From the IMG/VR virus record IMGVR_UViG_2974574300_000001, positions 20,420-84,419 of that record: a DNA stretch of 64,000 nucleotides. The stretch is one strand, 5' to 3'. This document shows, piece by piece, positions 16,082 to 40,907 of the stretch. Under the pieces are notes generated by a model. It did no database searches. It had not been told where the DNA came from and saw only the letters and a program-made list of their open reading frames with translations. Within the stretch, counting starts at the first letter, position 1. Each line of letters begins with the position of its first letter. Source of the stretch: a virus (lineage: Duplodnaviria > Heunggongvirae > Uroviricota > Caudoviricetes). Position numbers and translations under genes: made by a program.

Positions 16082-16597
16082 TCAACTTAGTTTTGCAAAC
16101 TCTCCGTGGAGTTTAATAGCAGCTTCACAGTAAGCTTTATGGGCTTCTTCTTCCGTTGTGTATGTTCCTATATGTATAGTCTTGCCATTATGGTTAATCT
16201 GGGCTATCCACTTACCAGACTTGCTTCTACTTGTACCTTTTAAGTTTTTTGATGTTCTGGGTTGTCTCCTATTAGACATGTTCTGCTCTTTTGTGGCCTC
16301 TCTTAGATTGTCCCAAGCGTTATTCAAACCATCTCCATCTTTGTGGTCAATGTGTTTATCAGGCCACTTACCTGTCATCCAGAACCAAGCAATTCGGTGA
16401 TTACCTGTCCTGTATCCTAAAATCTGTGTGTGCATATACACACCAGACCTTGTGCGCTTAATTGCTCCGGCTTGGCTTCCAATGACCACCCTACTACTAT
16501 GTGGAGGTCTCCCAATCCATGTTAAGACCCCTGTTTCGGGGTCATAATCTAACCAAGACTTTAACTGTTCATGTGTGAATCCACAATCTCTCATCAA
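16082..16597 (-). CDS. HNH homing endonuclease with AP2-type DNA-binding domain
   Basis: 171 aa; YDPETGVLTW N-terminus, IDHKDGDGLNNAWDNL HNH region, C-terminal EEEAHKAYCEAAIKLHGEFA; free-standing, directly downstream of the polymerase. Confidence 0.65.
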   Translation of the reverse strand: MMRDCGFTHEQLKSWLDYDPETGVLTWIGRPPHSSRVVIGSQAGAIKRTRSGVYMHTQILGYRTGNHRIAWFWMTGKWPDKHIDHKDGDGLNNAWDNLREATKEQNMSNRRQPRTSKNLKGTSRSKSGKWIAQINHNGKTIHIGTYTTEEEAHKAYCEAAIKLHGEFAKLS

Positions 16598-17148
16598 TGT
16601 ACCTCATACCAGCTCTTACCAACTTTACCAGTACCAGTTACAAGCGTTTCCTCCTTAAGACCTAAGTTTCTTGATGCCTGACCATACATCCAGTCAATTA
16701 CTGCTTTAACATCCTGTGTCATCTCTTCTGGGCACTCCCAACTATTCTCGTCGTGGTATGCTAAAAGCAATCTAGCACCAATAGCTGGTTTTCGACCATT
16801 CAGCTTTGTAAGACCCTCTTCACAAGCCCTTCTACAAGCAAGGTTGATAGCTTCATTCTGAACCTGACTTTCCGAACCCATGAGCAAGTAATTTAAAAGT
16901 TTGTGCGGAGATTTACACCACAACCATGCACCTGCTACCTTTACAAAACCACCCTTAGAGATTGCAGCAGTCTTACCAAACACCTCTTCAAGAGCCTTCT
17001 TAGTGGCTTTGAAGTCTGCTTCCAAATTATCTATCAACTTTTTAATCTTAGGAAGGCGTACAAAGTAAGTTTGCTTAGTTAAAGCACCCTCTTCAGTAGT
17101 TGCAGCTTTAATCGTCTTAGCAAACTTCTCGTCACCTGCCCCAAACAA
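16594..17148 (-). CDS. DNA polymerase (family A), 3' exon
   Basis: 184 aa with FGAGDEKF (end of motif B) and LLAYHDE (motif C); separated from upstream pol ORF by an ORF-bearing intron-like insert. Confidence 0.7.
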   Translation of the reverse strand: MFGAGDEKFAKTIKAATTEEGALTKQTYFVRLPKIKKLIDNLEADFKATKKALEEVFGKTAAISKGGFVKVAGAWLWCKSPHKLLNYLLMGSESQVQNEAINLACRRACEEGLTKLNGRKPAIGARLLLAYHDENSWECPEEMTQDVKAVIDWMYGQASRNLGLKEETLVTGTGKVGKSWYEVH

Positions 17149-17951
17149 TACATCTGGTCAATACACTCGCAAGGTGTACCAGTTCTCTTATGAACTTCTC
17201 CGCATTTCTACGGAGTGTCGGACTATATCACGTAGCAGTGCTGCTACCGTTGCGCTTGGGATGGTCATTAGCTTACCACCCTACTCTACTCAGTTCATAC
17301 GTTAAGTATGCTTTTCGATAGTCTCTGAACGTTTCTCTGTTAGGAATCTCTATAATCATGTTATTTACTCAGGTAGTCAATTGCCCTTTGCATATTATCA
17401 ACGCTATCTGCAAGCAACCCCAAAGCTCTATTGCAATTGTGGCACAACATACCTCTTACTTTTCCGGTTTTGTGGTCATGGTCAACGACAAGTTTAGCCT
17501 TATGCCGTGAGCTATTCATGATAAAACCTTCACCGCCACAAATTTGACATTTGTAATCACAGTTACGAAGTAGGGTTTCAACCTCTTCTCTTTCTAAACC
17601 ATATGTTCTCAGGTAGTAATTCTTAACTCTACCTTTCTCTCCGCAATGCGAAGAACAATAAACTTGCCTTGCTGTTCTAGGCATGAACACCTTCTCACAG
17701 CTAGGACATTTCTTAGTAAGAACCCTATGTTCTGCTCTTCTGTCAAATTTTAATACGCAACTTCTGCACCGTTTTTGATTGTATTGGTATGGTTTAAACT
17801 CTGCACCACACTCAGTACACAATCTCTCTTTGTAACCTGCCATTGTCTCTCTCCTTTGTTTTAGGAGTCCTAACAGAGACTTCGCTGCTGATTACCATGT
17901 CTTTACAGACTTAGGCTTCCAGCAATTCACAACGTTTTACATGCGCCACTG
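17149..17951 (-). mobile_element. putative group I intron in the DNA polymerase gene (boundaries approximate)
   Basis: ~0.8 kb insert with stops in all pol frames, carrying an endonuclease ORF; joining ...RKKAKNGIYA to LLFGAG reconstructs the pol-A motif B spacing. Confidence 0.5.
17361..17843 (-). CDS. intron-encoded endonuclease (endonuclease VII-like HNH)
   Basis: 160 aa with multiple CxxC pairs and VVDHDHKTGKVRGMLCHNCNRALG, resembling T4 endo VII-type HNH. Confidence 0.6.
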   Translation of the reverse strand: MAGYKERLCTECGAEFKPYQYNQKRCRSCVLKFDRRAEHRVLTKKCPSCEKVFMPRTARQVYCSSHCGEKGRVKNYYLRTYGLEREEVETLLRNCDYKCQICGGEGFIMNSSRHKAKLVVDHDHKTGKVRGMLCHNCNRALGLLADSVDNMQRAIDYLSK

Positions 17952-20124
17952 ACGCATAAATACCATTCTTGGCTTTCTTACGACCCTTACTAATTTCTTG
18001 AAGAAGGTTTGTATCCTGAGTAGCTCGACAAGTCAAGATATCTTCCTCTTTATTAAGGCTGAAGTAGATACTATTTAAAGTATGTGCATCAGTTCCTGAG
18101 TACACCACGTACAAGTCATTTTCCGAATCATAATGCAAATACTTGTCAATCTCTGGGTTTAGATACTGGTCAAAATGTTTACAATAGTATCTACCATCCT
18201 CTTGTTTGACAAACTCAACCTCTTCTTTACCCTCTGTCACTGCTTTGGTGAACTCTTTATCACCCATAAAGTTACACAGCAGTACAAGTTGCGCGCTATT
18301 CATATCTGCTGAAACAATATTAGTCCCTTCTTCACAAGTCCACACCTCCCGCATAGGTGCTCCATAGACAGCAGCACCAGATGGTACGTTTACAATACCA
18401 TATTGTGTCATACGCCCAGTTGAAGTACCAAACACCATTGCACCAGCACTAAGGCGACCATCAGGACGAATCTGGTTCAACCAACCTTTTTCATCATCCT
18501 TTGAGTTCTCAATAGTTCTGCGTCTGTGCATCAAAGTATAGTATTTAGCAATCTTCTGTCCAAGCTCACCTTCAATCGTATCATAAGATGATTCAGTAAG
18601 TTTTGGCGAAGTACGGATTAAGCAAGGCTCAAGCAAATCTGTGTACTTCTTCACAGACCAGTTATGCTCAATGTACTGGACACCTTCATGTTCAACATAA
18701 CTCAAACCACACCGCTCAACCATTTCCTGCCACTTAGGATGTTTTGTAATCATCTTTTTATTGTCTTTGAAACGACAAACTTTGACAGGACGACCATCTG
18801 AGTCTTTCTTGTAGTTCCAGTCATCTGGAATCCAACCAACTGATTTCAAGTAGTCTTTAACAACTGCTACCTGAGTCATACGAGAAACTTCGAACTCAAT
18901 TGGTGTATATGGTGCATCAATCAAACCTGTGTAGCGACTTGACTCAAGTTCAAAGTGGTTAACGACGTGGCTGTTATAGTACTTCACAGTTTTGACTGTT
19001 TTTACTGGTTTCCAGTCTTTGCATTTCTTACCAATCTTTGCGTTCAACTCATTGCAAATTGCACGAGCATCCTTCATTGCTACAAAGCCTTCCTTGTACT
19101 CTTCACCAGTTACAGTGTTGGTTGGTGTATAGCAATTTCTCTTTTCAATGTTAAAAATCTTTGTAGTTGGCTTACCAAATGGCTTGATTTCATAAGTTTG
19201 CATCTCACCGTTACGTACCTGCTGACGATACTTTGTTTTAGGGTACTTGGTAATTCTCTTCAGTCCATCTGCATGACCAAATGTTTCAACATACTCATTC
19301 CAAGCTTTTGCAAACTCTTCTCCAGTGACTTTACCTTTGGTCTTAATAGTTGGAGGAAGATGTGGTTCAACCTCTGAAGCAAGCTCATTAGTCAACTTGT
19401 CAAGTTCCTTCACATGGAACTCCATAAGCTCTTTATCAGCTTTCCAACCATTGATAGCTTGTTGACTCATCCAGAAAGATGTTTCTTTAGCTCGCATGTA
19501 GGTTTCATAAGTGTCTATGCCACACTTCTTAAGCTTGAGATACTCATTATCAAGTGCCCGTTTAGTTTTGGCGTTAATACGGATATCTTCTACAACACGA
19601 GTGAAGATTTCTGCATTCCACACACCCCAATGCTCAATCTCTGGTTTACGAACACCAACACGAGCACCCCATGCAGCCAAACCATGAGCACCTTTATAAC
19701 CCTTTGGAGTTGGTCTATCCATCCACTGAACACGAGACTGGATAAGAGAATCCTGAAAGAAATTACTCCACGGCTTACATTTTGGATTATCAAAGTTCCA
19801 TAAATCCGGTGCAATGTGATTGAAGACCCACCAGTCATAACCGAGGCCGTTATGGATACAAAGTCGTTTTGCCTTTAACGCAAACTCAACACCTTCACGT
19901 AAACCACCCTTAATGTACTTAGTGTACTTGTGACCGAGGATAGGCTCATCTGTAAAGACCCATACAGGTGGCTCTTCATCGTCAGATTTATAGTCTGCAA
20001 AGGCCATTACGTGAACTTTAGTGAACTCAAGGAGTAAACCATCAGTTTCTGTATCACCAACCAAATGTAAGTTTTTAAAATCTACGTTTTCCATTTTTAC
20101 TCCCTCTAAAATCATTAACCCCAT
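17952..20124 (-). CDS. DNA polymerase (family A), 5' exon with 3'-5' exonuclease region
   Basis: ORF 17911..20124 (737 aa); the last ~13 codons are probably intron sequence; C-terminus reaches the start of motif B (RKKAKNGIY). Confidence 0.7.
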
Positions 20125-20154
20125 ACATTACTGCAAAAAATTATAAAAAGCAAG

Positions 20155-20183
20155 TTGACAATACACTTGACAAGGTGTTAATC
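20155..20183 (+). promoter_or_regulatory. sigma70-like promoter in divergent intergenic region
   Basis: ttgaca-N17-ttaatc; a second ttgacaagg box lies inside the spacer. Confidence 0.3.
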
Positions 20184-20350
20184 TTTGCGAAGTGGGTTTT
20201 TACTTAAAAGGTTACTTAACAGTTTAACTATACAGATACTTTAAAACTCTTAAAAGATTATTTAATAGCTTTTAAAAAGCTTTAAAGTATAACGTATAGA
20301 ATACGTTAAGATAAAAGATTAAACTTAATAGTTACTTAAAAGAGGCTTAC

Positions 20351-20773
20351 ATGCAGAAAATGTTTGTTCACCCAGACATAGCTGACTTTGTTAGAGCTTT
20401 GCAGAAGTTGGAAGAACTTGACATTGCTGCTCAACGGGAATATGCTCACCATCACAGGAGAATGGTTGATATACAACATGAAATAGAGTTGTCTGAAAAC
20501 TATGAAGATGACTTAAAATGCTCTGTATTTGAGCATATGAAAGATGTTGCTACAGCGAGACGTAAAGCTAAAGACACAGTTGCTTTACTAGATTCTCTTA
20601 AAAAGAGGTTGCAAAGTGGTACAGACCTGTGTAATCTAGCGTCACTGATTAACGATGTTGAAACTTCTTGGGATAGGCACTATTATCCACGTTCTGAAAA
20701 GACACTTGACTTTTCTTCATCCGAAAACTTAAAATGTTCTAGAAAGAAACTTAACCAACTGAGAGAGAAATAA
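20351..20773 (+). CDS. hypothetical protein
   Basis: 140 aa ORF opening the + strand replication block. Confidence 0.4.
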   Translation: MQKMFVHPDIADFVRALQKLEELDIAAQREYAHHHRRMVDIQHEIELSENYEDDLKCSVFEHMKDVATARRKAKDTVALLDSLKKRLQSGTDLCNLASLINDVETSWDRHYYPRSEKTLDFSSSENLKCSRKKLNQLREK

Positions 20774-20774
20774 T

Positions 20775-21575
20775 ATGAATATCGATGTAGAAAAGATGCT
20801 TGAAGAAAAAGGTATTGACGAAGCGTTCTTAATCAATGCTGTAGAAAGCATGGCTATGATTCTTCGTGGTAACAACTACACAGAACAGTTTATGCCTGCA
20901 AGCTATAACTTGCCTGAAGACAAGTCTGATAACGGTGCTTTTGCAGAACAGGTTAACATGATGTTGACAGACACTACACTTGCTCTAGCATCTATTGCTG
21001 TTGGTGTTGATGCACTTGCTGAGTTTATTTTTTATGAAATGCAAAAGAATGACTATATCAGGATGTCAGACGAAGATAAGGAACTGTTACTGACTAAGGA
21101 TACTGATTTCCTTATTGACATGCTTATCTCATCAACAAGTGTTGTTATGGCTGCGCTTGAGAAGCGTATGGAAGAAAAGCTGTCACGATATGAAAAGCTT
21201 GATTGGGGCGTAGAAGAATTAAGCCCACGAATCAAAGAGATTATCCAGCAAACTAAAAAGTCTTTGGAAGAAGCTGTTGAAAATGACTCTGTAGCTGATA
21301 TAGAGCCACTTCAGGTGAAAGTTGCGCTAATGATTCCAGCTATCTCTACGATGATGAATATCGTTGCACTAATCCAACTTTCACAGATGATGGGTATGAG
21401 TATTGAGTTCATTGAGGAGATGACTGGTGGTGTTAGTATGCAAGCAATCAATGATGTTTTGGTGAATATTGGTGCTTCAATCATTGAAGAGAAACTACGC
21501 ATTAACTTCGGTGATGATTTTGTGAAGCAACTCTCAGCTATGGCTGAAAAAGAGTCTGCTGAGCAACTGCACTAA
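20775..21575 (+). CDS. hypothetical protein
   Basis: 266 aa ORF. Confidence 0.4.
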   Translation: MNIDVEKMLEEKGIDEAFLINAVESMAMILRGNNYTEQFMPASYNLPEDKSDNGAFAEQVNMMLTDTTLALASIAVGVDALAEFIFYEMQKNDYIRMSDEDKELLLTKDTDFLIDMLISSTSVVMAALEKRMEEKLSRYEKLDWGVEELSPRIKEIIQQTKKSLEEAVENDSVADIEPLQVKVALMIPAISTMMNIVALIQLSQMMGMSIEFIEEMTGGVSMQAINDVLVNIGASIIEEKLRINFGDDFVKQLSAMAEKESAEQLH

Positions 21576-21594
21576 GCCTTTATAAATCTTACAA

Positions 21595-21620
21595 GCCTCC
21601 TTAGTTGGGGGCTTTTTAGT
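21595..21620 (+). terminator. rho-independent terminator
   Basis: agcctcc-ttagttg-gggggct followed by ttttt. Confidence 0.4.
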
Positions 21621-21636
21621 AATTAATGGAGATAAA

Positions 21637-22380
21637 ATGAGTAAAATCATCGCATTTACTGGAAAGGCACGTTCTGGAAAAGACACCTCGTGCTCTATTG
21701 TGAAGAACATCTTAGAGGATGAGTACGGCTACAATGTTGCAGTAATGGCCTATGCAGACAACCTTAAGCTATCTGCATCAAAGATATTTGACCTGACTTG
21801 GAATGACCTGTATGGTGAAACTAAAGAGACTCCACAGGTTTTTGACTTATCATATCCTGAACTGATGTCAAAAGTTACGGAAGCTATGGAGTTCACCTTC
21901 AGAGATGAACGTTACCATATGGACTTCAAGCTTATGTCAGAGTTAACCGGACGATTGATTATGGAGCTTAAGAAGGTCGCTAAACCAACTCTATTGACAC
22001 GTCTGGGATTTAGCAAGAAGTATAAATTCTCATCAAGACAAATTCAACAGATTTGGGGTACTGAAGTTATCCGTAAAGTTATGGGTGACAAATTCTGGGC
22101 TAAAGACCTTGAAAAAAGAATGGTTAGATTCTATGAAATGTGCTCACTTAGAAATCAATATGGTTTTGTCTTAATCAGTGATTTAAGATTTGACTCTGAA
22201 GCTGAATGGCTGAGTAGATTTGCACACCAAACTATTGAAGTAAAAAGAGACAATGTGGACAAAGTTTCATCACATGTTTCAGAAAATGGGATTTCTACAA
22301 AATATGAGCGTGACATTATTCATAATAATGGTACTCTTGCAGACCTTGAGAACAAGCTAAGAGCCATCATTAAAGTTTAA
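21637..22380 (+). CDS. deoxynucleoside monophosphate kinase-like P-loop kinase
   Basis: 247 aa; N-terminal IIAFTGKARSGKDT P-loop like T4 gp1 dNMP kinase (GVKRSGKDT). Confidence 0.55.
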   Translation: MSKIIAFTGKARSGKDTSCSIVKNILEDEYGYNVAVMAYADNLKLSASKIFDLTWNDLYGETKETPQVFDLSYPELMSKVTEAMEFTFRDERYHMDFKLMSELTGRLIMELKKVAKPTLLTRLGFSKKYKFSSRQIQQIWGTEVIRKVMGDKFWAKDLEKRMVRFYEMCSLRNQYGFVLISDLRFDSEAEWLSRFAHQTIEVKRDNVDKVSSHVSENGISTKYERDIIHNNGTLADLENKLRAIIKV

Positions 22381-22388
22381 AAGAGAGA

Positions 22389-22589
22389 ATGAAGATGAGA
22401 GTAAAAGACAATTTTAAAGTTATTGACCACCGTTTAGTGGAACTCTCATCTCTTTCCAATGAGGTAATGATTGAACGTCTTAAGAGAGTTGAATCACGAA
22501 GGAAAGAGATTGCAGATGAAATTCATGAACTGGACAAGATTGAAAATGGATTGAAGGCAGAACTACAACGAAGAGGTGCTAATGTCTAA
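22389..22589 (+). CDS. small coiled-coil protein
   Basis: 66 aa ORF. Confidence 0.3.
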   Translation: MKMRVKDNFKVIDHRLVELSSLSNEVMIERLKRVESRRKEIADEIHELDKIENGLKAELQRRGANV

Positions 22590-24567: not shown

Positions 24568-24637
24568 TAGTTATAAAAGAGAGGGGTTCACACCCTTCTT
24601 TGAAGAAAAAAGTTTAAATAAATTTCAGGAAGAGTGT

Positions 24638-24666
24638 TTGACAAAGATTGATAGGTTCTATAGAAT
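24638..24666 (+). promoter_or_regulatory. sigma70-like promoter
   Basis: ttgaca-N17-tagaat upstream of a small basic ORF and the SSB-like gene. Confidence 0.45.
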
Positions 24667-24969: not shown

Positions 24970-25041
24970 TTAGTATTTGACAATAGAGTATCAACAAATT
25001 AGAATTGGTACTCTTCATAAATTGAGATAGAGGTTTAAATA

Positions 25042-25967: not shown

Positions 25968-27014
25968 ATGGAGAAGTACACATTAACAAAACTTCCCGAT
26001 TCAGTTACACATGTTTTTATTGACTCTGACAGCATTGCCTATAAAGGTGCTTGTGTAGTTGAGAAAGCAAAATATAAATACGTCAATAAACTCACAGCAG
26101 AAGAATCTGAACCATTTGACAATGCGAAAGATGCTGCAAGATGGTTAGCAGACCAGAGAATCCTTGTGGAAGAACTTGGCCTGACATTTGATGAAGATGA
26201 ATGGGAAAGACAGACTTGGAAAGAAGCTAAGAGTGAGAAAGAAGCTATCATGGCGACTCAACAGGTGCTTCAGGAATGGCTTAAGGTTGTTGGGAAAGAG
26301 AGAACTTGGGTAGGTTATTTAACAGAGAAAGGTGTGCATAAACATAAAGACATTAAAGGTCTTGAGCACCAATATCAAGGTAACCGCAAAGATGCTGTCA
26401 CACCAACACACTTAGTTGCTTGTCGTGAGTATCTTCTGTCAAGACCAGAGTTCAAATTGATTCTTGATGGATTTGAAGCTGACTCTATCGTTATTGCTAA
26501 AGCTGAAAAAATGGGAAAAAAGGCTGCCTTAATGAGTATTGATAAAGACCTTCGCCAAGCTGAAGGGACTTACTGCATTGATATGACCTATGAAAAGTCA
26601 CCTTTGATTTTCATTGCTGACAACAACGTAGGTGAAATTTGGGATTGCCCAATAAAATCTACACCAAAAGCTAAGAAGACAGTCGGGGTAGGTTTTAAAT
26701 TTCTTTGCTATCAAGCCGTGGCTGGTGATAATGCGGATAATTATTTTGGCTTAAAGGGTGTTGGCAAGGTTACTATAATGAAAGCCCTTGAAGGTAAAAC
26801 CACCTACAAAGAGTGTCTTGATGCAATTTATGAGCTTTATGCTAAGAAAGAGTCATATACTTATGTCTCGTGGGATGGTCAAACAATTACCAGAACACCT
26901 TTAGAGTTAATGCAACAACACTTTTTCTTAGCTTATCAGGAAAGAAATAAGAAAGACGATTTCACTTTTGATAAGTATGGATGGACACCAAATGTTAACC
27001 CAACAAACTCTTAA
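25968..27014 (+). CDS. flap endonuclease / 5'-3' exonuclease (FEN family)
   Basis: 348 aa with GDNADNYFGLKGVGKVTIMKAL (H3TH-type motif) and acidic active-site residues. Confidence 0.65.
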   Translation: MEKYTLTKLPDSVTHVFIDSDSIAYKGACVVEKAKYKYVNKLTAEESEPFDNAKDAARWLADQRILVEELGLTFDEDEWERQTWKEAKSEKEAIMATQQVLQEWLKVVGKERTWVGYLTEKGVHKHKDIKGLEHQYQGNRKDAVTPTHLVACREYLLSRPEFKLILDGFEADSIVIAKAEKMGKKAALMSIDKDLRQAEGTYCIDMTYEKSPLIFIADNNVGEIWDCPIKSTPKAKKTVGVGFKFLCYQAVAGDNADNYFGLKGVGKVTIMKALEGKTTYKECLDAIYELYAKKESYTYVSWDGQTITRTPLELMQQHFFLAYQERNKKDDFTFDKYGWTPNVNPTNS

Positions 27015-27491
27015 AGAATACCTACACTATGACCCGAAACAGGGGTCTTTACTTGGTTAGTTGATAGAAAAGGTAAGGCCAAAGCTGGCTCAGTAGCAGG
27101 TTTTAAACACCATAGCGGTTATATCTATATAAAACTCTTCGGAAAAAGATATGCAGCACACAGGCTGGCATTCTTGTATATGAAAGGATACCTCCCAAAA
27201 TTTGTTGACCACAAGAATTGTATCAGATACGACAACTGGTTCGACAATTTGAGAGAGTGTAGCAGGTCAGACAACAACTGTAATGCAGTCAAAAGAAGAG
27301 ATAATAAGTCTGGTGTGAAGGGTGTATATTACCACAAGCAAAGAGGTAGATGGGCTGCACAAGTTAAGCATAATAAAGTTTGCTACCATCTAGGTCTATT
27401 TGACTCTGTTGCTGAGGCTGAAGAAGTTGTCAAAAAGAAAAGAGAAGAACTTCATAGAGAGTTTACAAATCACGGAGAAGCTCATGAATGA
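26992..27491 (+). pseudogene. HNH-AP2 homing endonuclease interrupted by a frameshift near 27033-27040
   Basis: ATG at 26992 gives MLTQQTLKEYLHYDPKQGSLLG then stop; next frame continues PETGVFTWLVDRKGKAKAGSVAGFKHHSGYIYIKLFGKRYAAHRLAF into ORF 27174..27491; YDPETGV(F/L)TW matches the intact paralogs at 16082 and 40416. Confidence 0.55.
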
Positions 27492-27988
27492 TTAAAGTTA
27501 AAGGTTTTGGGAGTTGTCCAACTTATGGACATTGGATTTCACTATGTGGTGAAGTTGACCCAGCAAAGCACTTTGGTTTTGTCTACCTAGTGTACTGCAA
27601 AAAGACTGGACAGTACTATTTGGGTAAAAAACAGCTTAACAGTGTGACCAAAAGAAAAGTTGCTGGTAAGACTCGGAAGAAGATAGTCACTAAGGAAAGT
27701 GATTGGATGACTTATGAGACTTCTTCTGAGTATATCAAAAAAGATATTGAAAGTTTTGGAAAAGAATTTTTTGACTTTTACATTATCCAAACCTACTACA
27801 CAAAAGGTGGTCTAGTTTATGGTGAAGCAAACCTTCAACATAAGTTCGATGTAATGACAAAAAGGATTGACTCGAAGCTCAGACTCTTCTACAATGCCAA
27901 TATTGCAGCAATTAAGTTTATTACCAAAGAAACTTATGAAGATGCTGAAAAAAGAATCCATAAGGTAATGAAAGTAAATTGTGCTTGA
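27488..27988 (+). CDS. putative GIY-YIG-like endonuclease
   Basis: 166 aa; FVYLVYCKKTGQYYLGKK resembles GIY-(x9-10)-YIG, then basic region. Confidence 0.35.
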   Translation: MIKVKGFGSCPTYGHWISLCGEVDPAKHFGFVYLVYCKKTGQYYLGKKQLNSVTKRKVAGKTRKKIVTKESDWMTYETSSEYIKKDIESFGKEFFDFYIIQTYYTKGGLVYGEANLQHKFDVMTKRIDSKLRLFYNANIAAIKFITKETYEDAEKRIHKVMKVNCA

Positions 27989-33729: not shown

Positions 33730-33736
33730 AATGAAA

Positions 33737-33758
33737 GGGTCTCTTCGGAGACCTTTTT
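33737..33758 (+). terminator. rho-independent terminator
   Basis: gggtctc-ttcg-gagacc followed by ttttt. Confidence 0.6.
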
Positions 33759-33777
33759 AGCATGTAAAGGGGCAATA

Positions 33778-34974
33778 ATGAACAAAGTACAGATTATTAA
33801 AAAGAATGGCTCACTCGAAGAACCTGATATCAAAAAAGTTTTAGCAGCAGTCACAAAGTCAGCTAACAGAGTTGGTTATAAAGAGCTTCCACCAGATGTT
33901 ACTCAAGCTCTTGAGTCAGCATTTATGAGGATTCTGGTAAAGTCCACTAAGCAGAATAATTTACTCATTTCAGTAAATGATATTCACAGTATTGTTGAGG
34001 GTGCTTTGGCAGAAGTCAATCACGAGATTTATGAGTCTTACTCAACATATAGAAATTACCGTAAAGAAGTTGCTCAGAATTGGGATGAACTCTACCAGAA
34101 GACCAAAGATACACTCTTCTTAGGTGACCGAGAAAACGCTAATTTTGACAGCAGTTTAATTTCTACAAAAGGTTCAATTATTCGTGGTTATCTGACTAAA
34201 GAAATCTTTAAACAGTACCATTTAACACCAGAGGAACTTGAAGCCATTGAAAAAGGGTTTATCTATATCCATGATTTAAGAGACCTAATTTTTGGTGGTA
34301 TCAACTGTTGCCTGTTTGACATTGGTAAAGTCCTGAAAGGTGGCTTTGAAATGTCTGGCATTGAATATTGTGAACCGAAGTCTGTACTGTCAGCCTTACA
34401 GGTTATTGGTGACGTAGTTCTTTCAGCAACTGCACAGCAATTTGGTGGCTTTACTTTAGCAGAGATTGATAAGGTACTTGTGCCGTATGCTAAGAAGTCT
34501 CTACGCTATCATGCTGAGAAAGCAACAGCTTATGGTATTCCTAAAGAACATTACCACAACTATGTCATGGAGCAGCTACAGATTGAATTAACTCAAGGTT
34601 TTCAGTCTCTTGAAATGAAACTAAATACTGTACCTTGTAGCCGTGGTGATTTTGCATTCACAACTTTGACATTCGGGTTGCTTGACTCAGATATGTCTAA
34701 TGAAGATAACCGACTGCAATACATGATTGCGAGCACTCTCCTAGATGTTCGTATGAATGGACAAGGTAAGAGCAAGAAGCCTGTTGTATTCCCTAAATTG
34801 GTTTATATTTATGACCAGAAGAGACACAATGAGAATATCTGTCAAGGCCACCTGTACAGTAAAGCTATTGAGTGTTGCTCTAAAGCTATGTATCCAGATT
34901 TCTTAAGTGTATCTGGACATGGTGCTGTAGCAGAGGCTTTTGAGCGTTCTGGCAAGGTAATTTCCCCGATGGGT
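33778..34974 (+). CDS. nrdD: anaerobic ribonucleotide reductase (class III), 5' exon
   Basis: 399 aa beginning with an ATP-cone-like N-terminus; frame ends ...VISPMG then stop at the proposed intron start. Confidence 0.75.
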
Positions 34975-35716
34975 TAACAGGCTCTATAGCTCATCTAAAA
35001 CGTGCCTAAACAGGGAAACTCTACAGATGTAGACAATCCTGTGCTAAATGATGTACGATGTAAGAAACTATACAACATAGGAGTCTTACATGCCAAACTA
35101 TCACGTCACTGAAGATGGAAAAGTCTTTAGGGAAAATGGTGTAGAGCTTACGCAGTGGAAATCCAACACTGGGTATATGAAAGTGAGGTTTTACGGTAAG
35201 AAGAATCGTGACATGTATGTCCACAGGTTAGTTGCTGAGAAATATGTACCTAACCCAAATAATCTTCCAATTGTAAAACATAAGGACGATAACAAACTAA
35301 ATAACCACGCATCTAACTTAGAATGGGGTACTCATTCTGAGAATGCTAAAGAAGGTTATGAGAACGGATGCTACAAGTTCCACAAGCGTTCATATGCCGT
35401 GAAAGCCACACACAAAGTGACAAAGGAAGTTATTGTTGCTAAGTCAATACGAGAGTTATCCAATATACTTGGACACAATCGCAAGACCATCTCTTCAATA
35501 TTGAAGGGTGTAAAAGAGCATAATAACTTCGAATATGAGTTTGAATACATCTAAATGCCGAACGACTAACCGTGATGAATGTAGCGGTGTAGGGTCAAGC
35601 GACTCGAAATGGTACGCTACTTAGAAATAAGTAGAAGATATAGTCTGGACTTACTGGCGACAGTAAGCAGCTTGAATAAAGCGGGGTAAGCTTAGCGAAC
35701 TTACCTGAACAACAAG
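34975..35716 (+). mobile_element. putative group I intron in nrdD carrying an HNH endonuclease ORF
   Basis: 742 nt insert; upstream exon ends in T, insert ends in G; splicing gives ...VISPMG-CRAFLSPYHNEYGEEFYVGRANIGAVSLNLP and a 714 aa product. Confidence 0.6.
35090..35554 (+). CDS. intron-encoded HNH homing endonuclease
   Basis: 154 aa with VHRLVAEKYV...KHKDDNKLNNHASNLEWGTHSEN (HNH-type His/Asn motif). Confidence 0.6.
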   Translation: MPNYHVTEDGKVFRENGVELTQWKSNTGYMKVRFYGKKNRDMYVHRLVAEKYVPNPNNLPIVKHKDDNKLNNHASNLEWGTHSENAKEGYENGCYKFHKRSYAVKATHKVTKEVIVAKSIRELSNILGHNRKTISSILKGVKEHNNFEYEFEYI

Positions 35717-36664
35717 TGTAGAGCATTTTTATCACCATACCATAACGAATATGGTGAAGAGTTTTATGTAGGTCGTGCTAACATTGGTGCTGTATCTTTG
35801 AACTTACCAATGATTTACCAGTATTCTAAAGAGAATGGCTTAGATTTCTGGAAAGAGCTTGATAAGTACCTAGAAATGATTCGCAGCTTCCACAAGAAAC
35901 GTTACGAAATGATTGCTAATATGCCAGCAAGTTCTAACCCTCTTGCATTCACACAAGGTGGTCTGTACAAAGGGAATAAGAAACCTACTGACAAGGTTGG
36001 CTGGGATATCGTGAAGTCCTTCACAGCTTCTTTTGGGGTTACTGCGCTTGATGAGCTAGATGTTCTTGCTGAAGGTAAACGACTTCATGAAGTTGGAAGC
36101 TGTAGTTTTGCATATGATGTTCTGGAATATATCAACATGAAGACTGAAGAGTTTAAAAATGAAGATGGCTTCTTATATGCAGTCTATGGCACTCCAGCAG
36201 AATCACTTTGTGGAACTCAGCTAAAACAGTTCAGAGATATGTTTGGCGTTATCAAAGGCGTTTCTGACAAGGAATACTTTACAAACAGCTTCCATATGAA
36301 TGTTGCAGCCGACATTACACCATTTGAGAAGCAGGACTTAGAAGAACCCTTCTTCCATATCTGTAGAGGCGGCAGAATCCAGTATGTAAGAGTGGCTAAT
36401 CCAGAAAACTTACCAGCACTTAAGAGTTGTATTACAAGAGGGATGTTGAAAGGTTTCTATCAGGGACTTAACTTTGACTTAGCAATCTGTGAGCATTGTG
36501 GCAACAGACCAAAGGCTGATGTTGAAGAATGTGAGGTTTGTCATTCACACGATATCTCTGTGATTAACAGGGTGTGCGGGTACTTGTCATTCACAAAAAT
36601 TAAAGGTCAGTCTCGAATGAATGACGCTAAGATGGCAGAAATTAAGGATAGGGTTTCTATGTAG
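35717..36664 (+). CDS. nrdD: anaerobic ribonucleotide reductase (class III), 3' exon
   Basis: Frame open from 35696; contains a four-Cys cluster and C-terminal glycyl-radical motif RVCGYL. Confidence 0.75.
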   Translation, partial: CRAFLSPYHNEYGEEFYVGRANIGAVSLNLPMIYQYSKENGLDFWKELDKYLEMIRSFHKKRYEMIANMPASSNPLAFTQGGLYKGNKKPTDKVGWDIVKSFTASFGVTALDELDVLAEGKRLHEVGSCSFAYDVLEYINMKTEEFKNEDGFLYAVYGTPAESLCGTQLKQFRDMFGVIKGVSDKEYFTNSFHMNVAADITPFEKQDLEEPFFHICRGGRIQYVRVANPENLPALKSCITRGMLKGFYQGLNFDLAICEHCGNRPKADVEECEVCHSHDISVINRVCGYLSFTKIKGQSRMNDAKMAEIKDRVSM

Positions 36665-36671
36665 AATACAA

Positions 36672-37229
36672 ATGAATTACGAACTAATATATAATGCAAT
36701 TATTAAGAAGGCACATTCTGAAAGGGGTGTGCCTCTTACATACTACAAATGTCAAGGTAAGGGTTATGAAAGACACCATATCATACCAGTGTGTCTAGGT
36801 GGCGATAAAATTAGTGGAGATAATATTGCTTTACTTACACCTAGAGAGCATTATGTAGCTCATAAATTACTGGTTAAGATGTATCCAAACAATCATAAGT
36901 TATGGTTTGCATGGAACAGGTTAGCTCATGATGGCCTAGATAGGAAAATATCATCCAGAGACTATGAAAAGGTAAGGGCTTTGAACTCGAAAGCTTCATC
37001 CATTGTGAATAAAGGTAGGGTTTTCACTGAAGAACATCGAAGACGATTAGGAGAATCTCAAATAGGTAATACAAAATCAAAAGGTTGTAAAAGGTCTATA
37101 GAAACAAGGAAGAGGATGTCAGAAGCCGGAAAAAAGCCAAAGAAAAAGAAAACTTGCCATCATTGTGGTATGACTGGTGGTGCTGGTAACATGACTCGAT
37201 ATCATTTTGACAATTGTAAGAAAAAATAA
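36672..37229 (+). CDS. free-standing HNH homing endonuclease
   Basis: 185 aa from ATG at 36672 (track start 36621 overlaps nrdD); GYERHHIIPVCLGGDKISGDNIALLTPREHYVAH HNH core, basic C-terminus. Confidence 0.6.
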   Translation: MNYELIYNAIIKKAHSERGVPLTYYKCQGKGYERHHIIPVCLGGDKISGDNIALLTPREHYVAHKLLVKMYPNNHKLWFAWNRLAHDGLDRKISSRDYEKVRALNSKASSIVNKGRVFTEEHRRRLGESQIGNTKSKGCKRSIETRKRMSEAGKKPKKKKTCHHCGMTGGAGNMTRYHFDNCKKK

Positions 37230-37242
37230 CCTTATGTAAAAC

Positions 37243-37272
37243 TTGACAAGGCGGTGTAGGTCTTGATAGGCT
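37243..37272 (+). promoter_or_regulatory. sigma70-like promoter upstream of nrdG
   Basis: cttgacaagg -35 box with a weak -10 (ataggc/taggct) 17-18 nt downstream. Confidence 0.3.
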
Positions 37273-37303
37273 TACATCACCTTTTTATTGGTGAGGTAAC
37301 TAT

Positions 37304-37789
37304 ATGAATTACATGGAGATTAGACCATTTGACACAGCTAATGGTGAAGGGGTTCGTGTAAGCCTCTTCGTAGCTGGTTGTAAGCATCACTGTGAAGGCT
37401 GCTTTAACAGGGAGTCTTGGAAGTTTAATGCTGGTAAAGAGTTTACTTATGCAAACCTTTACGGGATTCTAAGACTTTTGGAAGATGATTCTTTAAGTGG
37501 ATTATCTATTCTTGGTGGAGAACCACTAGATGACCGTAACGTTGAAGAGGTCACAAAGATTTGCCAGAAGGTAAAGTCTATCTACCCAGAAAAATCTATC
37601 TGGCTCTGGACAGGTTTTCAGTTACACGAAAAAATTCACCTAGATGTGATGAAATATGTTGACGTGGTGATTGATGGTAAGTATGATTCATCTAAACCAA
37701 CAGTTAAACCATATCGTGGTTCTGATAACCAAAACCTCTGGAGAAAAGAGTATGGGTGGCAAGGTGATTGTCAGTGGAGAGCCGAGTAA
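37304..37789 (+). CDS. nrdG: anaerobic ribonucleotide reductase activating protein (radical SAM)
   Basis: 161 aa with GCKHHCEGC (CxxxCxxC radical-SAM cluster motif); next to nrdD. Confidence 0.8.
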   Translation: MNYMEIRPFDTANGEGVRVSLFVAGCKHHCEGCFNRESWKFNAGKEFTYANLYGILRLLEDDSLSGLSILGGEPLDDRNVEEVTKICQKVKSIYPEKSIWLWTGFQLHEKIHLDVMKYVDVVIDGKYDSSKPTVKPYRGSDNQNLWRKEYGWQGDCQWRAE

Positions 37790-37826
37790 GTCTCGTCGTA
37801 GAGTAGGTTACGGAAAAGGTGAGATA

Positions 37827-38129
37827 ATGGTTCTTTCTTTTAACAGTGCTTTATTAGGTACTTACAAAGTTAAGACCGAACTCCTTGATGAGTGGAGAAA
37901 GTATACAAACTCACTTTTCGGTAATGTTGGAATGGAAGCCTTAGCAGAGATTGAGAAGGCTGGAACATTTGAAGTTGTCGGTAAAGGTAACTACACAATG
38001 TTCTACAAAACAAATTTAAACGTTGGTGACAGTATTGTTGGTGTCACTGAAGAAGAACTTAAAACATTTTGTGAAAAGATTGAGAGAGATACGAAATGGG
38101 ACTCTGGAACAGTTTTAAATCAAAAGTAA
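37827..38129 (+). CDS. hypothetical protein
   Basis: 100 aa from ATG with ggaaaaggtgag RBS (track ORF 37671..38129 overlaps nrdG). Confidence 0.35.
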   Translation: MVLSFNSALLGTYKVKTELLDEWRKYTNSLFGNVGMEALAEIEKAGTFEVVGKGNYTMFYKTNLNVGDSIVGVTEEELKTFCEKIERDTKWDSGTVLNQK

Positions 38130-38353
38130 AAGCAGCACTAGCTTCATTAGGTATGCTCACTGGTGTTGATGTGACTCATCTTATGCAGAACTTTAAGATG
38201 GATGAGAAGCTGGCTAATGAGATTATGAAAAGTATCTATGTAGGCCGTGGTAAAGGTGGTAAGAAACAAGCCCATCGTCCGTCTGGTGCAGCAGCTATTA
38301 AACGAGCAGCTAAGAAAGCTCGTAACCGTAAACGTAATAAGAAGGCTAAATAA
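38096..38353 (+). CDS. small highly basic protein
   Basis: 85 aa; C-terminal half Lys/Arg/Ala-rich (GRGKGGKKQAHRPSGAAAIKRAAKKARNRKRNKKAK). Confidence 0.4.
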   Translation: MGLWNSFKSKVKAALASLGMLTGVDVTHLMQNFKMDEKLANEIMKSIYVGRGKGGKKQAHRPSGAAAIKRAAKKARNRKRNKKAK

Positions 38354-38355
38354 TC

Positions 38356-38676
38356 ATGAGCAAAATCTATAACACTCGCAAATTACAGATTTTCGTACTG
38401 TGCCAGTTTATGGCTAAAGAATATAACTTCTACTATTGTGGTACAGGTTTTATTAGTGATGATGATGGTTCATATCTACCATTTAAAGAAGCTGTGAAGC
38501 TCTTTAATGAAGAGAAAAACTCTAAGAAAGATATTGAAAAGGTTAAGCTAACCTACAGCAAGAAAGATAAGAAGATTATCTGCCTAGATAACTTTGTAAA
38601 AGTTACTGGAGAAGCAAAAGAGTTTATGGATGAGAGTGAGATTTCATTCACAAGCATCTTGAAAGTAGCTCAGTAA
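38356..38676 (+). CDS. hypothetical protein
   Basis: 106 aa ORF. Confidence 0.35.
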   Translation: MSKIYNTRKLQIFVLCQFMAKEYNFYYCGTGFISDDDGSYLPFKEAVKLFNEEKNSKKDIEKVKLTYSKKDKKIICLDNFVKVTGEAKEFMDESEISFTSILKVAQ

Positions 38677-38689
38677 ACAGATACTATAA

Positions 38690-38715
38690 GGGAACTGTAA
38701 AGGTTCCCTTTTTAT
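38690..38715 (+). terminator. rho-independent terminator
   Basis: gggaac-tgtaaag-gttccc followed by tttttatttt. Confidence 0.55.
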
Positions 38716-38727
38716 TTTGGAGATAAA

Positions 38728-39243
38728 ATGTATCTGTCAAACCTGAAACGTTCGGCTGCAATGTCAGTCCTAAGACTCAGCTTTGAGGAACGTCAAGAGT
38801 TCATTGACTCCCACCAATACGACCCTTCTAACTCGAATCACATGGTTCTTTGGAATCGTGATAACTTCCGTGAAAGAGCACTTGTCCGTTATTACCCACA
38901 CTACACAATAGATAACCTGTATGAATGGTGTGTTGTGAAGAACACTATTGCAACACTGAACAATCTTTGCAGGTATACAGGTAAGCAAGCATTTACATTA
39001 GGCCACCACAAACCTGTTACAAAGGGTGGTGAGCATCACTGTGCAAACTGGTTTATCCAGACTAAGCTCGATAACCAGAAGCAAGGAGATAACCTTCTAA
39101 GCACACCTAAGATGACCTATGAAGAGCAAGAGAAATATATCAAAAATAATATGCCAGATGTGCTTGACAACAACTATACAGATTTGGCAATATCTCTCCT
39201 GTTGAAGTTCGAGACAGTTTATAGGGCAACTTATAATGGCTAA
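38728..39243 (+). CDS. hypothetical protein, possible HNH-like nuclease
   Basis: 171 aa; LGHHKPVTKGGEHHCANWFIQTKLDNQ loosely fits an HNH core. Confidence 0.3.
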   Translation: MYLSNLKRSAAMSVLRLSFEERQEFIDSHQYDPSNSNHMVLWNRDNFRERALVRYYPHYTIDNLYEWCVVKNTIATLNNLCRYTGKQAFTLGHHKPVTKGGEHHCANWFIQTKLDNQKQGDNLLSTPKMTYEEQEKYIKNNMPDVLDNNYTDLAISLLLKFETVYRATYNG

Positions 39244-39514
39244 AGAGAAGTGGAAGATTTTACCATTAGTCAGTGAAGGTGGTAATGGTTGTGAAATGTA
39301 CATGATACGTGGTCATGTTCCAGAACCAATTGCACTTGAGATGGTAAACAACTTTACAGATGGCTCTTACAAAGACTTAGGGGAGCCAACTATAAAGCAG
39401 CAATGGGTAAAGCCTGTACCAGACAGCACAGGTAACTGTAGTGTACTTTATCACGTTGTAGACCCTGCAAAATGCAAATCTGCAATGGCAGTAACAAACG
39501 TAACTTTTGATTGA
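39236..39514 (+). CDS. hypothetical protein
   Basis: 92 aa ORF. Confidence 0.35.
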   Translation: MAKEKWKILPLVSEGGNGCEMYMIRGHVPEPIALEMVNNFTDGSYKDLGEPTIKQQWVKPVPDSTGNCSVLYHVVDPAKCKSAMAVTNVTFD

Positions 39515-40407
39515 GAGAGAAAACTATGAAAACATCTATCCGTGTTACAGTTCATTCACCAACTAAAGGGACTCATGAAGAAGAGTTTAACATCGTCCAA
39601 TTTCCTTCTGGTGAGATTGGTGGACATTTTTCACCAGAGTTTGTTGATTTTACTGCTTATGCTGCATCATCCATCAACAACGTGATTATGATTGTAAAGG
39701 GTTATGACAAAGACACATTATTTGCTGTGGCACTTGCTAAAGAGGCAATTGATGATTTAGTACCTCATAAGTTTGCTATGAAGACTGCTATCTTTTACTA
39801 TTTGCCAAATGCACGTTACGACCGTCACATGTTTAAAGGCGATGCAGCAGCTTTGAAAGTGTTTGCACAACAGGTTAATGCAATGGGTTTTGATGCAGTC
39901 TGTGCAGTTGACCCTCATAGTTACGTTCCAGATAACCTTTTCAACTGCTTCCAGAGTATTCCTCAAAAGGAGATTGCAGTCCACTATGCAAATGACCCTC
40001 TGATTGATTACTTAGTAGCCCCAGATGCAGGTGCTTCTAAGAAGATTGCAGAGACTGCTAAAGAGGTGGATAAACCATATATCACAATGTCTAAAGTACG
40101 CAACCTTAAGACTGGTGAAATAACTGGTATGCGAATCCTTGATGATGTTGATTTGACAGATAAAACTGTCATGATTCTTGATGATATTTGTGATGGTGGT
40201 CGAACCTTCGTAGAAGCAGCGAAACATCTTCGTGAAGCAGGTGCAAAACGTGTGGAACTTTATGTAACACATGGTATCTTCTCTAAAGATGTTGAAAACC
40301 TTCTTGACAATGGTATCGACCATATTTACACTACAAACTCTTTAGGCGAAGCTAAAGACCGTGGCTTAACACATTACAGTCAAGTTACTGTAGCAAACCT
40401 TGATTAG
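39511..40407 (+). CDS. ribose-phosphate pyrophosphokinase family protein (Prs-like; candidate Adps-type)
   Basis: 298 aa; two-domain phosphoribosyltransferase-like architecture with PRPP-binding-loop-like VMILDDICDGGRT. Confidence 0.6.
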   Translation: MREKTMKTSIRVTVHSPTKGTHEEEFNIVQFPSGEIGGHFSPEFVDFTAYAASSINNVIMIVKGYDKDTLFAVALAKEAIDDLVPHKFAMKTAIFYYLPNARYDRHMFKGDAAALKVFAQQVNAMGFDAVCAVDPHSYVPDNLFNCFQSIPQKEIAVHYANDPLIDYLVAPDAGASKKIAETAKEVDKPYITMSKVRNLKTGEITGMRILDDVDLTDKTVMILDDICDGGRTFVEAAKHLREAGAKRVELYVTHGIFSKDVENLLDNGIDHIYTTNSLGEAKDRGLTHYSQVTVANLD

Positions 40408-40415
40408 GTAACAGT

Positions 40416-40907
40416 ATGAATAAGGGTTATTTTGAAAGATACCTAATATATGAACCAGATACAGGTTTATTAATTTGGAGAGTAACCCTTTGCAGTACCG
40501 CTATTGCTGGTAATGTGGCTGGCACAAGGTCTAAGAAGGGTTATATCCAAGTCCAGATAAATAAGAAGAGGTACTATGCACATAATATTGCATGGATTAT
40601 GTCTGGAGGTGAGATACCAAGTGGATATGAGATAGACCACATAGACCTTGATAAATCTAATAATAAGTTGGAGAATTTAAGACTTAGCACAAAGTCACAA
40701 AATCAGAGGAATAGGGGTATATACAAGAATAATAAAACTGGTGTGAAGGGTGTAAGTTTTTGTAAACAAACAGGTCTTTACAAAGCAAGAGTCATGCTTT
40801 ACCATAAAGAATACTTTTGTGGAAGATTTAAAACGGTAGAAGAAGCAAAAGAAGCTGTAATTAAAAAGCGAATAGAACTTCATGGTGAGTTTGCAAGACA
40901 TAACTAA
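40416..40907 (+). CDS. HNH homing endonuclease with AP2-type DNA-binding domain
   Basis: 163 aa; YEPDTGLLIW N-terminus, YEIDHIDLDKSNNKLENL HNH region, C-terminal EEAKEAVIKKRIELHGEFA; sits between the Prs-like and NAMPT-like genes. Confidence 0.65.
   Translation: MNKGYFERYLIYEPDTGLLIWRVTLCSTAIAGNVAGTRSKKGYIQVQINKKRYYAHNIAWIMSGGEIPSGYEIDHIDLDKSNNKLENLRLSTKSQNQRNRGIYKNNKTGVKGVSFCKQTGLYKARVMLYHKEYFCGRFKTVEEAKEAVIKKRIELHGEFARHN

Follow-up and report, generated by a model that had tools for sequence, protein, structure and literature searches.

The DNA analysed here, a 64,000-nt stretch of a viral genome that we refer to as the window, belongs to the genus Felixounavirus (Felix O1-like myophages). 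It matched Salmonella phage PMBT20 at 97% identity over 100% of the query, with a shared gene order, and 344 phage records matched the window in total. The segment between 16 and 41 kb corresponds to the part of a Felix O1-type Salmonella/E. coli phage genome devoted to replication and nucleotide metabolism. The original prediction had described this region as carrying an unusually high load of homing-endonuclease-type genes, and all the ORFs that it named were found where it had placed them (Table 1).

Table 1. Candidate endonuclease genes, predicted introns and interrupted host genes in the 16–41 kb region of the window.
Feature	Position	Strand	Basis
Copy a, free-standing HNH_3 + AP2 gene, directly 3′ of polymerase gene	16082..16597	-	Pfam HNH_3 1e-14, AP2 2e-9; PHROG 99
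DNA polymerase (family A) exon 2	16594..17150	-	Spliced product colinear with intronless ortholog
Predicted group I intron, 801 nt, DNA polymerase gene	17151..17951	-	Boundaries from intronless alleles; Rfam Intron_gpI pieces flank ORF
Putative intron-encoded endonuclease VII-type (His-Me finger) endonuclease	17361..17843	-	Pfam Endonuclease_7 9e-20; PHROG 307
DNA polymerase exon 1	17952..20124	-	Intronless allele alignment
Copy b, HNH_3 + AP2, between flap endonuclease/exonuclease and GIY-YIG genes	26992..27491	+	Pfam partial HNH_3 + AP2 at 27174-27491
GIY-YIG-domain protein, 166 aa, catalytic domain only (residues 22-139)	27488..27988	+	Pfam SegE_GIY-YIG 1e-26
nrdD (anaerobic ribonucleotide reductase) exon 1	33778..34974	+	Intronless alleles
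Predicted group I intron, 742 nt, nrdD	34975..35716	+	Boundaries from intronless alleles; Rfam pieces
Putative intron-encoded HNH_3 homing endonuclease	35090..35554	+	Pfam HNH_3 1e-10; PHROG 59
nrdD exon 2	35717..36664	+	Intronless alleles
Putative free-standing HNH + NUMOD3 homing-endonuclease gene, between nrdD and nrdG	36672..37229 (ORF also from 36621)	+	Pfam NUMOD3; PHROG 655
Conserved 171-aa protein with HNH-like motif, core gene	38728..39243	+	Present across relatives
Copy c, free-standing HNH_3 + AP2 gene, between prs and NAMPT gene	40416..40907	+	Pfam HNH_3 2e-19 + AP2

Domain searches with Pfam and PHROG supported nuclease families for most of the listed ORFs. Nuclease domains of the His-Me/HNH type were found in the three HNH-AP2 genes (hereafter copies a, b and c) and in the ORF of the nrdD intron, all as HNH_3, and in the ORF of the polymerase intron as Endonuclease_7; the two intron-borne endonucleases and the trio of HNH-AP2 genes, one of them frameshifted, had thus been correctly recognised. 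The gene at 36672, which had been called a free-standing HNH gene, was confirmed by its NUMOD3 module, a match to PHROG 655 ‘homing endonuclease’ (1e-55), a weak colicin-DNase (HNH) match in Pfam and a readable HH..P..GG..N..H motif. As DNA-binding modules, Pfam identified AP2 in copies a–c and NUMOD3 in the gene at 36672, and found no DNA-binding domain in the two intron ORFs. Within 16–41 kb, 8 of the 34 ORFs matched a nuclease family, while such families were absent from the 65 ORFs elsewhere in the window (Fisher p = 1e-4, or 1e-3 when 6 of the 34 are counted). The predicted concentration in the DNA-metabolism region therefore held, and most of the genes indeed lie within or next to conserved genes for replication and nucleotide metabolism. 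We also searched the 7–46 kb portion of the window for endonuclease sites that are empty here and filled in relatives; the main further variable spot (~13.4–13.7 kb, upstream of the ligase gene) is filled in relatives by ORFs without a Pfam family. The load is unusual relative to sister genomes, but not otherwise, since six HNH genes were reported for Felix O1 in 2010 (Whichard et al. 2010, PMC3185647).

In a comparison with 29 relatives, six elements, namely the three HNH-AP2 genes, the two intron ORFs and the HNH-NUMOD3 gene, proved to vary between presence and absence at fixed sites, and the empty sites were clean, with spacers of 29, ~49 and 65 bp. None of the six sites was filled in 4 relatives, one in 9, two in 6, three in 6, four in 2, five in 1 and six in 1. 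The median relative has one or two filled sites, whereas the window, with all six, reaches the maximum seen; PMBT20 also holds all six and phage Mushroom five of them. Conversely, IMG/VR genome 2706795709 lacks the element at every one of the six sites, and phage wV8 at five. The HNH-NUMOD3 gene, for example, occurs in 7 of the 29 relatives. Such presence or absence at fixed sites is as expected of homing elements and, at the level of genome comparison, supports that reading. The remaining two candidates, the GIY-YIG gene and ORF 38728, failed the same comparison, as they were found in all relatives. Mean identity to the relatives drops from ~96–97% to 79–88% next to the polymerase intron with copy a, and again next to copy b, although ordinary mosaic recombination would also fit such dips near these sites. 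Divergent alleles 3′ of the polymerase gene switch to ~100% identity inside the gene's last ~70 nt.

We consider it very probable that the replication and nucleotide-metabolism module of this Felix O1-like phage has been colonised by six selfish homing elements. Each intron holds a His-Me-finger endonuclease gene, which would loop out of the ribozyme core, and four free-standing HNH genes (three with AP2, one with NUMOD3) sit in short spacers right behind essential genes, those for the polymerase, the flap endonuclease, nrdD and prs. In a mixed infection, each endonuclease would cut the allele of a co-infecting relative that lacks the element, within or close to the conserved gene next door. 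Repair by recombination, with the element-bearing genome as template, would then bring in the endonuclease gene (or the intron along with it) and adjoining sequence. The polymerase and NrdD would stay functional through intron splicing. We infer cleavage specificity, splicing activity and homing itself from the sequences compared.

Could the nuclease-like genes instead be domesticated phage functions, acting in host DNA degradation, recombination, regulation or packaging? For the set as a whole we regard this as unlikely, but it fits two of its members. In all relatives whose site was covered by the fetched DNA, the GIY-YIG gene keeps its position directly behind the flap endonuclease gene, and its identity (94–99%, ~85% and 61% across relatives) falls in step with that of the polymerase and flap endonuclease genes. 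ORF 38728 is likewise at a fixed position in every relative with the site covered, and its identity follows that of the neighbouring core genes. Because both are found in all relatives and track their core neighbours down to 61% identity, they are nuclease-like, vertically inherited core genes that show no mobility and fall outside the mobile set. The GIY-YIG domain of the first had been rightly recognised, with the motif positions GFVY, Y[ILV]G.K, Glu and Asn kept across distant homologs, but the sporadic distribution implied by a homing type is lacking, and the same pattern speaks against mobility of ORF 38728, which had been listed as a weaker HNH-like candidate. Pfam found no domain beyond the catalytic one in the GIY-YIG protein, and hence no C-terminal DNA-binding domain; a related protein that is annotated as a homing endonuclease in phage S16 has 361 aa, compared to 166 aa here. 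Its homologs include ~400 cyanophage records in which the family is kept in this short, catalytic-domain-only form under the label ‘NAD synthetase’, which is almost certainly wrong. PDB sequence searches with either protein returned nothing meaningful, and the homolog search for ORF 38728 yielded 20 close relatives only, too shallow a set for a strong profile. Domestication accounts poorly for the other six elements: most relatives lack them and have clean empty sites, several divergent alleles can be found at one and the same site, and one element has crossed between distant lineages. With such a distribution, an indispensable function would be an ill-fitting explanation for them.

That crossing concerns copy a, whose start codon (ATG, 16594) shares bases with the stop codon of the polymerase gene (TGATG). 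Its site holds the window's allele in 6 of the 29 relatives and other HNH-AP2 alleles in 12, and is empty in 11. In a Hafnia-phage-like genome (L055), copy a is 94–98% identical at the DNA level, with a sharp boundary at the polymerase stop, while the polymerase DNA of that genome is only 67% identical to the window's overall and 60–76% in the exon adjoining copy a. Judging from this mismatch, copy a represents one clear case of transfer between distant phage lineages. Copy c occurs in 7 of the 28 relatives with a readable site, and the ~49-bp spacer mentioned above is that of its empty site.

Copy b had been described as frameshifted and decaying. The frameshift is real in the window sequence; the decay, however, comes down to one nucleotide missing from a C4 run at ~27033, the rest being identical to intact copies such as that of Mushroom. 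All 27 occurrences of this context sampled in the relatives' loci read CCCC, so the deletion is unique to the window sequence, and the PMBT20 annotation shows an intact gene of 166 aa. Since a second frameshift, with GG missing at 8249, lies in the tail-fibre gene of the window, a sequencing error is plausible. As written, copy b is predicted to be incapable of activity. Programmed frameshifting was rejected, given that the lesion is confined to the window and all occurrences in the relatives' loci read through. Across the 29 relatives, the site holds the window's allele in 6 and another allele (52–56% amino-acid identity) in 9, and is empty, with the 29-bp spacer, in 14.

The original prediction had seen in the three HNH-AP2 genes one family spreading inside the genome, with one copy now decaying; on this reading they would be recent copies of a single element. 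They do have the same two-domain architecture, the N- and C-terminal motifs common to all three are visible in the alignment, and one copy is frameshifted. The shared termini, however, are signatures of the family's domains, and the copies are merely 33–38% identical to each other at the amino-acid level. Moreover, the HNH-AP2 alleles of all relatives fall into 14 clusters that group by insertion site and not by genome, with identities of 38–58% between different lineages at one site versus 31–46% between sites. The frameshifted copy, for its part, otherwise equals its intact orthologs and carries a lesion unique to the window, and the tail-fibre frameshift suggests an error in the sequence rather than decay. 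Recent spread inside the genome is thus not supported by the alleles compared, and we hold it to be quite improbable.

A tentative alternative for the history of these sites, which we think possible though somewhat short of an even chance, is that the slots 3′ of the polymerase and flap endonuclease genes are cassette sites with competing HNH-AP2 lineages, at least six at the former and four at the latter, and that the adjoining GIY-YIG nuclease has been domesticated. If so, unrelated HNH-AP2 lineages would replace each other through recombination, with one anchor in the essential gene and the other in the endonuclease gene's conserved final ~70 nt, and endonucleases with different target specificities would compete. 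The GIY-YIG protein would then be a domesticated, catalytic-domain-only core enzyme with a conserved function, shared with cyanophages and widely mislabelled.

Both interruptions of host genes (17151–17951 and 34975–35716) are best read as group I introns, as predicted from their junctions, core and homologs. The first splits the conserved polymerase segment between KKAKNGIYA and LLFGAG, with U at the end of the 5′ exon (17952, ...GCGU) and G at the end of the intron (17151, ...CAGAUG); the spliced polymerase has 909 aa, of which 876 are identical to an intronless ortholog, with zero gaps. The second lies between the Gly of PMG and the Cys of CRAFLSPY in nrdD, again with U closing the exon (...GGU) and G closing the intron (...CAACAAG), and the spliced NrdD of 714 aa is colinear without gaps with an intronless ortholog (698/714 identical). 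At the gathering threshold, Rfam gave zero matches on the whole window, and the introns came to light only when sub-regions were searched at permissive thresholds, and by way of homologs lacking the ORF. With RF00028 (gathering score 50), the polymerase intron matched in two pieces of 26.2 and 12.4 bits and the nrdD intron in two of 33.1 and 15.6 bits. These scores are low because the ORF splits the core, and the group I assignment therefore leans on homologous introns that lack an ORF, which reach 62.3 bits for the polymerase intron of Mushroom and 53.6 bits for an nrdD intron in a further relative (L004). The polymerase-intron endonuclease is present in 5 of the 29 relatives, as two allele types (79% and 97–99% amino-acid identity), and 2 further relatives have the intron without the ORF. 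For nrdD, the corresponding figures are 10 relatives with the endonuclease, 2 more with an ORF-less intron and 17 without an intron.

That the two genes are truly split, with an inserted endonuclease gene and two assembling polypeptides as in some T4-like phages, is very hard to credit: public annotations do give ‘DNA polymerase’ and ‘NrdD’ as two separate coding sequences each, and the window's own introns score under the Rfam threshold, but a group I core is recognised on either side of each ORF, the ORF-less homologs exceed that threshold, the junctions are canonical, excision restores an uninterrupted frame of exactly ortholog length, and exon 2 of each gene begins mid-motif. Inteins were also rejected, as the intervening ORFs are out of frame with the host genes and a group I core is present. 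The paired coding sequences in public records would thus be single intron-interrupted genes, whose exact boundaries, not defined in the Felixounavirus papers PMC3185647 and PMC4837284, are now given.

Selfish DNA is real and unusually complete in the window, but it is well known in Felix O1-like phages. Their high HNH load has already been published, and so has an nrdD interrupted by a homing endonuclease gene (Bardina et al. 2016, PMC4837284); in phage SPJ41 two introns were detected and relatives were found to differ at HNH regions (PMC9951933). The HNH genes of Felix O1 and other felixounaviruses belong to the same genus and genome module, and some records share both genes and sites with the window; Felix O1 itself, however, was reported to be intron-free, unlike the window with both introns and all six variable elements. 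The main value of our analysis for phage biology lies in annotation hygiene; no new kind of element is revealed. It is at the endonuclease sites that the phylogenies of these therapeutic and typing phages are scrambled by recombination and gene conversion, and the matrix of presence and absence offers natural pairs of element-bearing and element-free genomes for work on homing.

Polymerase-gene group I introns occur in the Bacillus phages SPO1/SP82 (I-HmuI/II) and the T7-like phage PhiI (I-TslI). Another is known from the DNA polymerase gene of Staphylococcus phage K (cited in PMC3185647). In all of these, as in the window, an intron with a His-Me-finger endonuclease interrupts a conserved polymerase segment, but the window's enzyme is of the endonuclease VII (PF02945) subtype. 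Proteins combining HNH and AP2 are likewise a known family of homing endonucleases (Magnani et al. 2004, as cited in PMC10448857), and such genes cluster around essential phage genes (PMC10448857). The IPA-HNH genes of the Vibrio phage ICP1 resemble copies a–c in their N-terminal HNH and C-terminal AP2 domains and in flanking one essential locus with several genes, and ICP1 has a frameshifted copy, too. They are, however, too divergent for Pfam HNH_3, whereas the window's copies match this canonical model directly.

Phage T4, too, has endonuclease genes lodged in group I introns of genes for nucleotide metabolism, nrdD among them (I-TevI/II/III), as well as free-standing ones between essential genes (Seg, Mob), and its mobile elements are sporadic among relatives, with co-converted flanking sequence. 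It differs in lacking HNH-AP2 types (Barth et al., PMC10448857), which are among the free-standing genes of the window. Over a stretch of 42 nt, the window's nrdD intron shares 97.6% identity with that of the T4-type phage HY03. I-TevII of T4 is not known to be an HNH_3 enzyme. In HY03, the annotated intron enzyme is encoded by a different, longer gene that follows the shared core segment, and, going by the annotated gene halves, the position of the T4-type nrdD intron also differs, with an exon 1 of ~180 codons versus 399 in the window.

The 16-41 kb stretch of the window is a replication and nucleotide-metabolism module, which holds the genes for DNA ligase, family A DNA polymerase, primase/helicase and flap endonuclease/exonuclease, together with nrdA/B, nrdD/G, prs and the NAMPT gene. 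It was matched by 344 phage records, nearly all of them Felixounavirus (Felix O1-like myophages of Salmonella, E. coli and Shigella); Salmonella phage PMBT20 covered the whole query at 97% identity with the same gene order, all endonuclease-like genes included. The original prediction had held that homing-endonuclease-type genes are concentrated in this module, and every ORF it named is present where it had been placed. Pfam and PHROGs supported the nuclease assignments in the table, and an HH..P..GG..N..H motif can be read in the protein of the HNH-NUMOD3 gene. Nuclease or homing-endonuclease families were matched by 8 of the 34 ORFs inside 16-41 kb versus 0 of the 65 ORFs outside (Fisher p = 1e-4), meaning that the concentration is real; 10 further ORFs inside the module had no match to such families either. 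The observation was thus borne out, and its interpretation found support in part.

Endonuclease-like genes and introns of the module, with positions in the window
Feature	Position	Strand	Domains or context
Copy a	16082-16597	-	HNH_3 + AP2 (Pfam, PHROGs)
Polymerase intron	17951-17151	-	801 nt; splits conserved KKAKNGIYA/LLFGAG
Polymerase-intron endonuclease	17361-17843	-	Endonuclease_7 (His-Me finger)
Copy b (part)	27174-27491	+	truncated HNH_3 + AP2 (Pfam, PHROGs)
GIY-YIG gene	27488-27988	+	SegE_GIY-YIG 1e-26
nrdD intron	34975-35716	+	742 nt; between Gly and Cys of PMG/CRAFLSPY
nrdD-intron endonuclease	35090-35554	+	HNH_3
HNH-NUMOD3 gene	36672-37229	+	NUMOD3, weak colicin-DNase match, PHROG 655 'homing endonuclease'
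Copy c	40416-40907	+	HNH_3 + AP2 (Pfam, PHROGs)

The intron boundaries were set by alignment with relatives having uninterrupted genes; in both introns, U is the last base of the upstream exon and G the last base of the intron. After intron removal, the polymerase (909 aa) and NrdD (714 aa) aligned without gaps to their intronless orthologs, with 876/909 and 698/714 identical residues, respectively. Rfam at gathering threshold gave no match in the whole window, since an ORF, looped out, sits mid-ribozyme in each intron; once thresholds were relaxed, a group I core appeared in two halves, one on the 5' and one on the 3' side of each intron ORF. The same introns without an ORF scored 62.3 bits (polymerase intron of phage Mushroom) and 53.6 bits (nrdD intron of L004, a relative's locus) against the Rfam gathering score of 50. 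Judging from sequence, the interruptions of both genes are group I introns. Just 3' of the HNH ORF in the nrdD intron, 42 nt (35552-35593) are 97.6% identical to nrdD-intron sequence of the T4-type phage HY03, with similar matches in other T4-like, T5-like and Vibrio phages; this stretch could belong to a strongly conserved part of the ribozyme core or stem from exchange between introns.

We compared the insertion sites among relatives, using the regions of about 20 kb that surround nrdD and the polymerase gene in 27 IMG/VR genomes, Mushroom and PMBT20. Six sites were scored: 3' of the polymerase gene, the polymerase intron, the flap endonuclease/GIY-YIG gap, the nrdD intron, the nrdD/nrdG gap and the prs/NAMPT gap. 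The six elements proved sporadic at these fixed sites, each being carried by only a minority of the sampled relatives, and the empty sites were clean, whether as short spacers (65, 29 and about 49 bp) or as precise intronless genes. Among the 29 genomes, 0 sites were filled in 4, 1 in 9, 2 in 6, 3 in 6, 4 in 2, 5 in 1 (Mushroom) and 6 in 1 (PMBT20); with 6/6 filled, the window stands at the top of the occupancy range for the genus. In the nrdD-nrdG spacer (36665-37303), most relatives have 3-5 small ORFs (predicted products of 55, 66, 99, 128 and 131 aa, some apparently membrane proteins), of which tblastn found no match in the window; the window, PMBT20 and Mushroom have the HNH-NUMOD3 gene only.

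The occupants of these sites also turn over. The site 3' of the polymerase gene holds at least six HNH-AP2 lineages (38-52% identity for most pairs, 73-85% among three related lineages), and the site after the flap endonuclease gene holds four (52-58% for most pairs, 84% for one). Polymerase-site alleles that diverge elsewhere abruptly become ~100% identical in the last ~70 nt of the gene. The copy a allele was also found in the Hafnia-phage-like contig L055, where the endonuclease gene is 94-98% identical while identity over the polymerase DNA is 67% in total and 60-76% within the exon adjoining copy a, the boundary falling exactly at the polymerase stop codon. Such a mismatch is direct evidence that the gene recently moved horizontally into the homologous site. 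Between the window and its close relatives, mean identity is ~96-97% but drops to 79-88% next to the polymerase intron and copy a, and likewise next to copy b; the remaining sites show shallower dips. Such a pattern is what co-conversion or target-site divergence would produce. The drop covers the exons and genes flanking the elements (16500-18250 and 26500-27500). Even in PMBT20, the endonuclease of the polymerase intron is another allele, at 79% aa identity.

The proposal that one family had been spreading within the genome was not supported, as copies a, b and c are only 33-38% identical to one another and HNH-AP2 alleles group by insertion site, not by genome; for these reasons, their shared termini are family signatures rather than evidence of recent intragenomic spread. 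Nor was it shown that one copy is now decaying. Copy b differs from intact orthologs only by one C missing from a C4 run at about 27033, a context that reads CCCC in 27/27 occurrences in relatives' loci, and past the missing base it matches the Mushroom copy exactly. The tail-fibre gene, a single gene of 2346 nt in PMBT20 (window counterpart 6914-9257), also has a deletion in the window, 2 nt at 8249, which splits it into ORFs 6914-8275 and 8322-9257; either the sequence is in error here or an important gene is truly truncated. For copy b, sequencing error and very recent inactivation are therefore about equally likely.

Two genes leave the mobile set. The GIY-YIG gene retains its place as a nuclease by domain and loses it as a sporadic element: it lies directly 3' of the flap endonuclease gene in every relative, and its identities (94-99%, about 85%, 61%) run in step with those of the polymerase and flap endonuclease genes. 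Its 166-aa protein consists of the catalytic domain only, with no DNA-binding domain found, and belongs to a family of conserved short proteins in about 400 cyanophage records and a Stenotrophomonas phage, with conservation at the GIY, YIG, Glu and Asn positions. The best reading of the gene is that it encodes a nuclease which is fixed and probably domesticated. ORF 38728 (38728-39243, plus strand), proposed as a weaker HNH-like candidate, is likewise a core gene. Most members of the GIY-YIG family are labelled 'NAD synthetase' (RefSeq Mushroom, wV8, many cyanophages and PHROG 447; homolog loci L064-L066); Pfam finds the GIY-YIG nuclease domain alone, and the label looks like a propagated misannotation.

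The six HNH genes of Felix O1 have been remarked on as an unusually high number (Whichard et al., PMC3185647), and Felix O1-like phages 'typically' carry several homing endonuclease genes, one of which splits nrdD in several of them (Bardina et al., PMC4837284). Two introns were detected in phage SPJ41, whose relatives vary at HNH regions (PMC9951933), and HNH + AP2 proteins are a recognised homing-endonuclease family whose genes cluster around essential phage genes (PMC10448857). T4 intron homing and intronless homing are the closest functional models. As nothing departs from these published models, the finding, though real, is not new. What the present analysis adds is the precise placing of both introns, the occupancy of each site with the turnover of its alleles, the movement of copy a between phage lineages, and a new standing for the GIY-YIG gene and ORF 38728, now counted among the core genes.

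Upstream of the DNA ligase gene (13423-13706), 18 loci of relatives contain additional DNA, 0.5-2 kb long; two ORFs of one such insert (15802-16847 of relative locus L042) matched no Pfam family. ARAGORN found no tRNA genes in the whole window; as about 18-23 tRNAs are reported in Felix O1-like genomes, the cluster must lie outside it. Between convergent gene blocks, an AT-rich 1.8-kb region (55600-57400) without ORFs of at least 60 aa is dense in repeats. A 33-nt unit recurs in tandem about 6 times (55940-56137), the 11-nt unit CTTAACATTTT occurs 4-5 times (56142-56196), and TGTTAAG/CTTAACA motifs, numerous and facing either way, extend to about 57320. In appearance the region is iteron-like; it could be an origin of replication or have a regulatory role.
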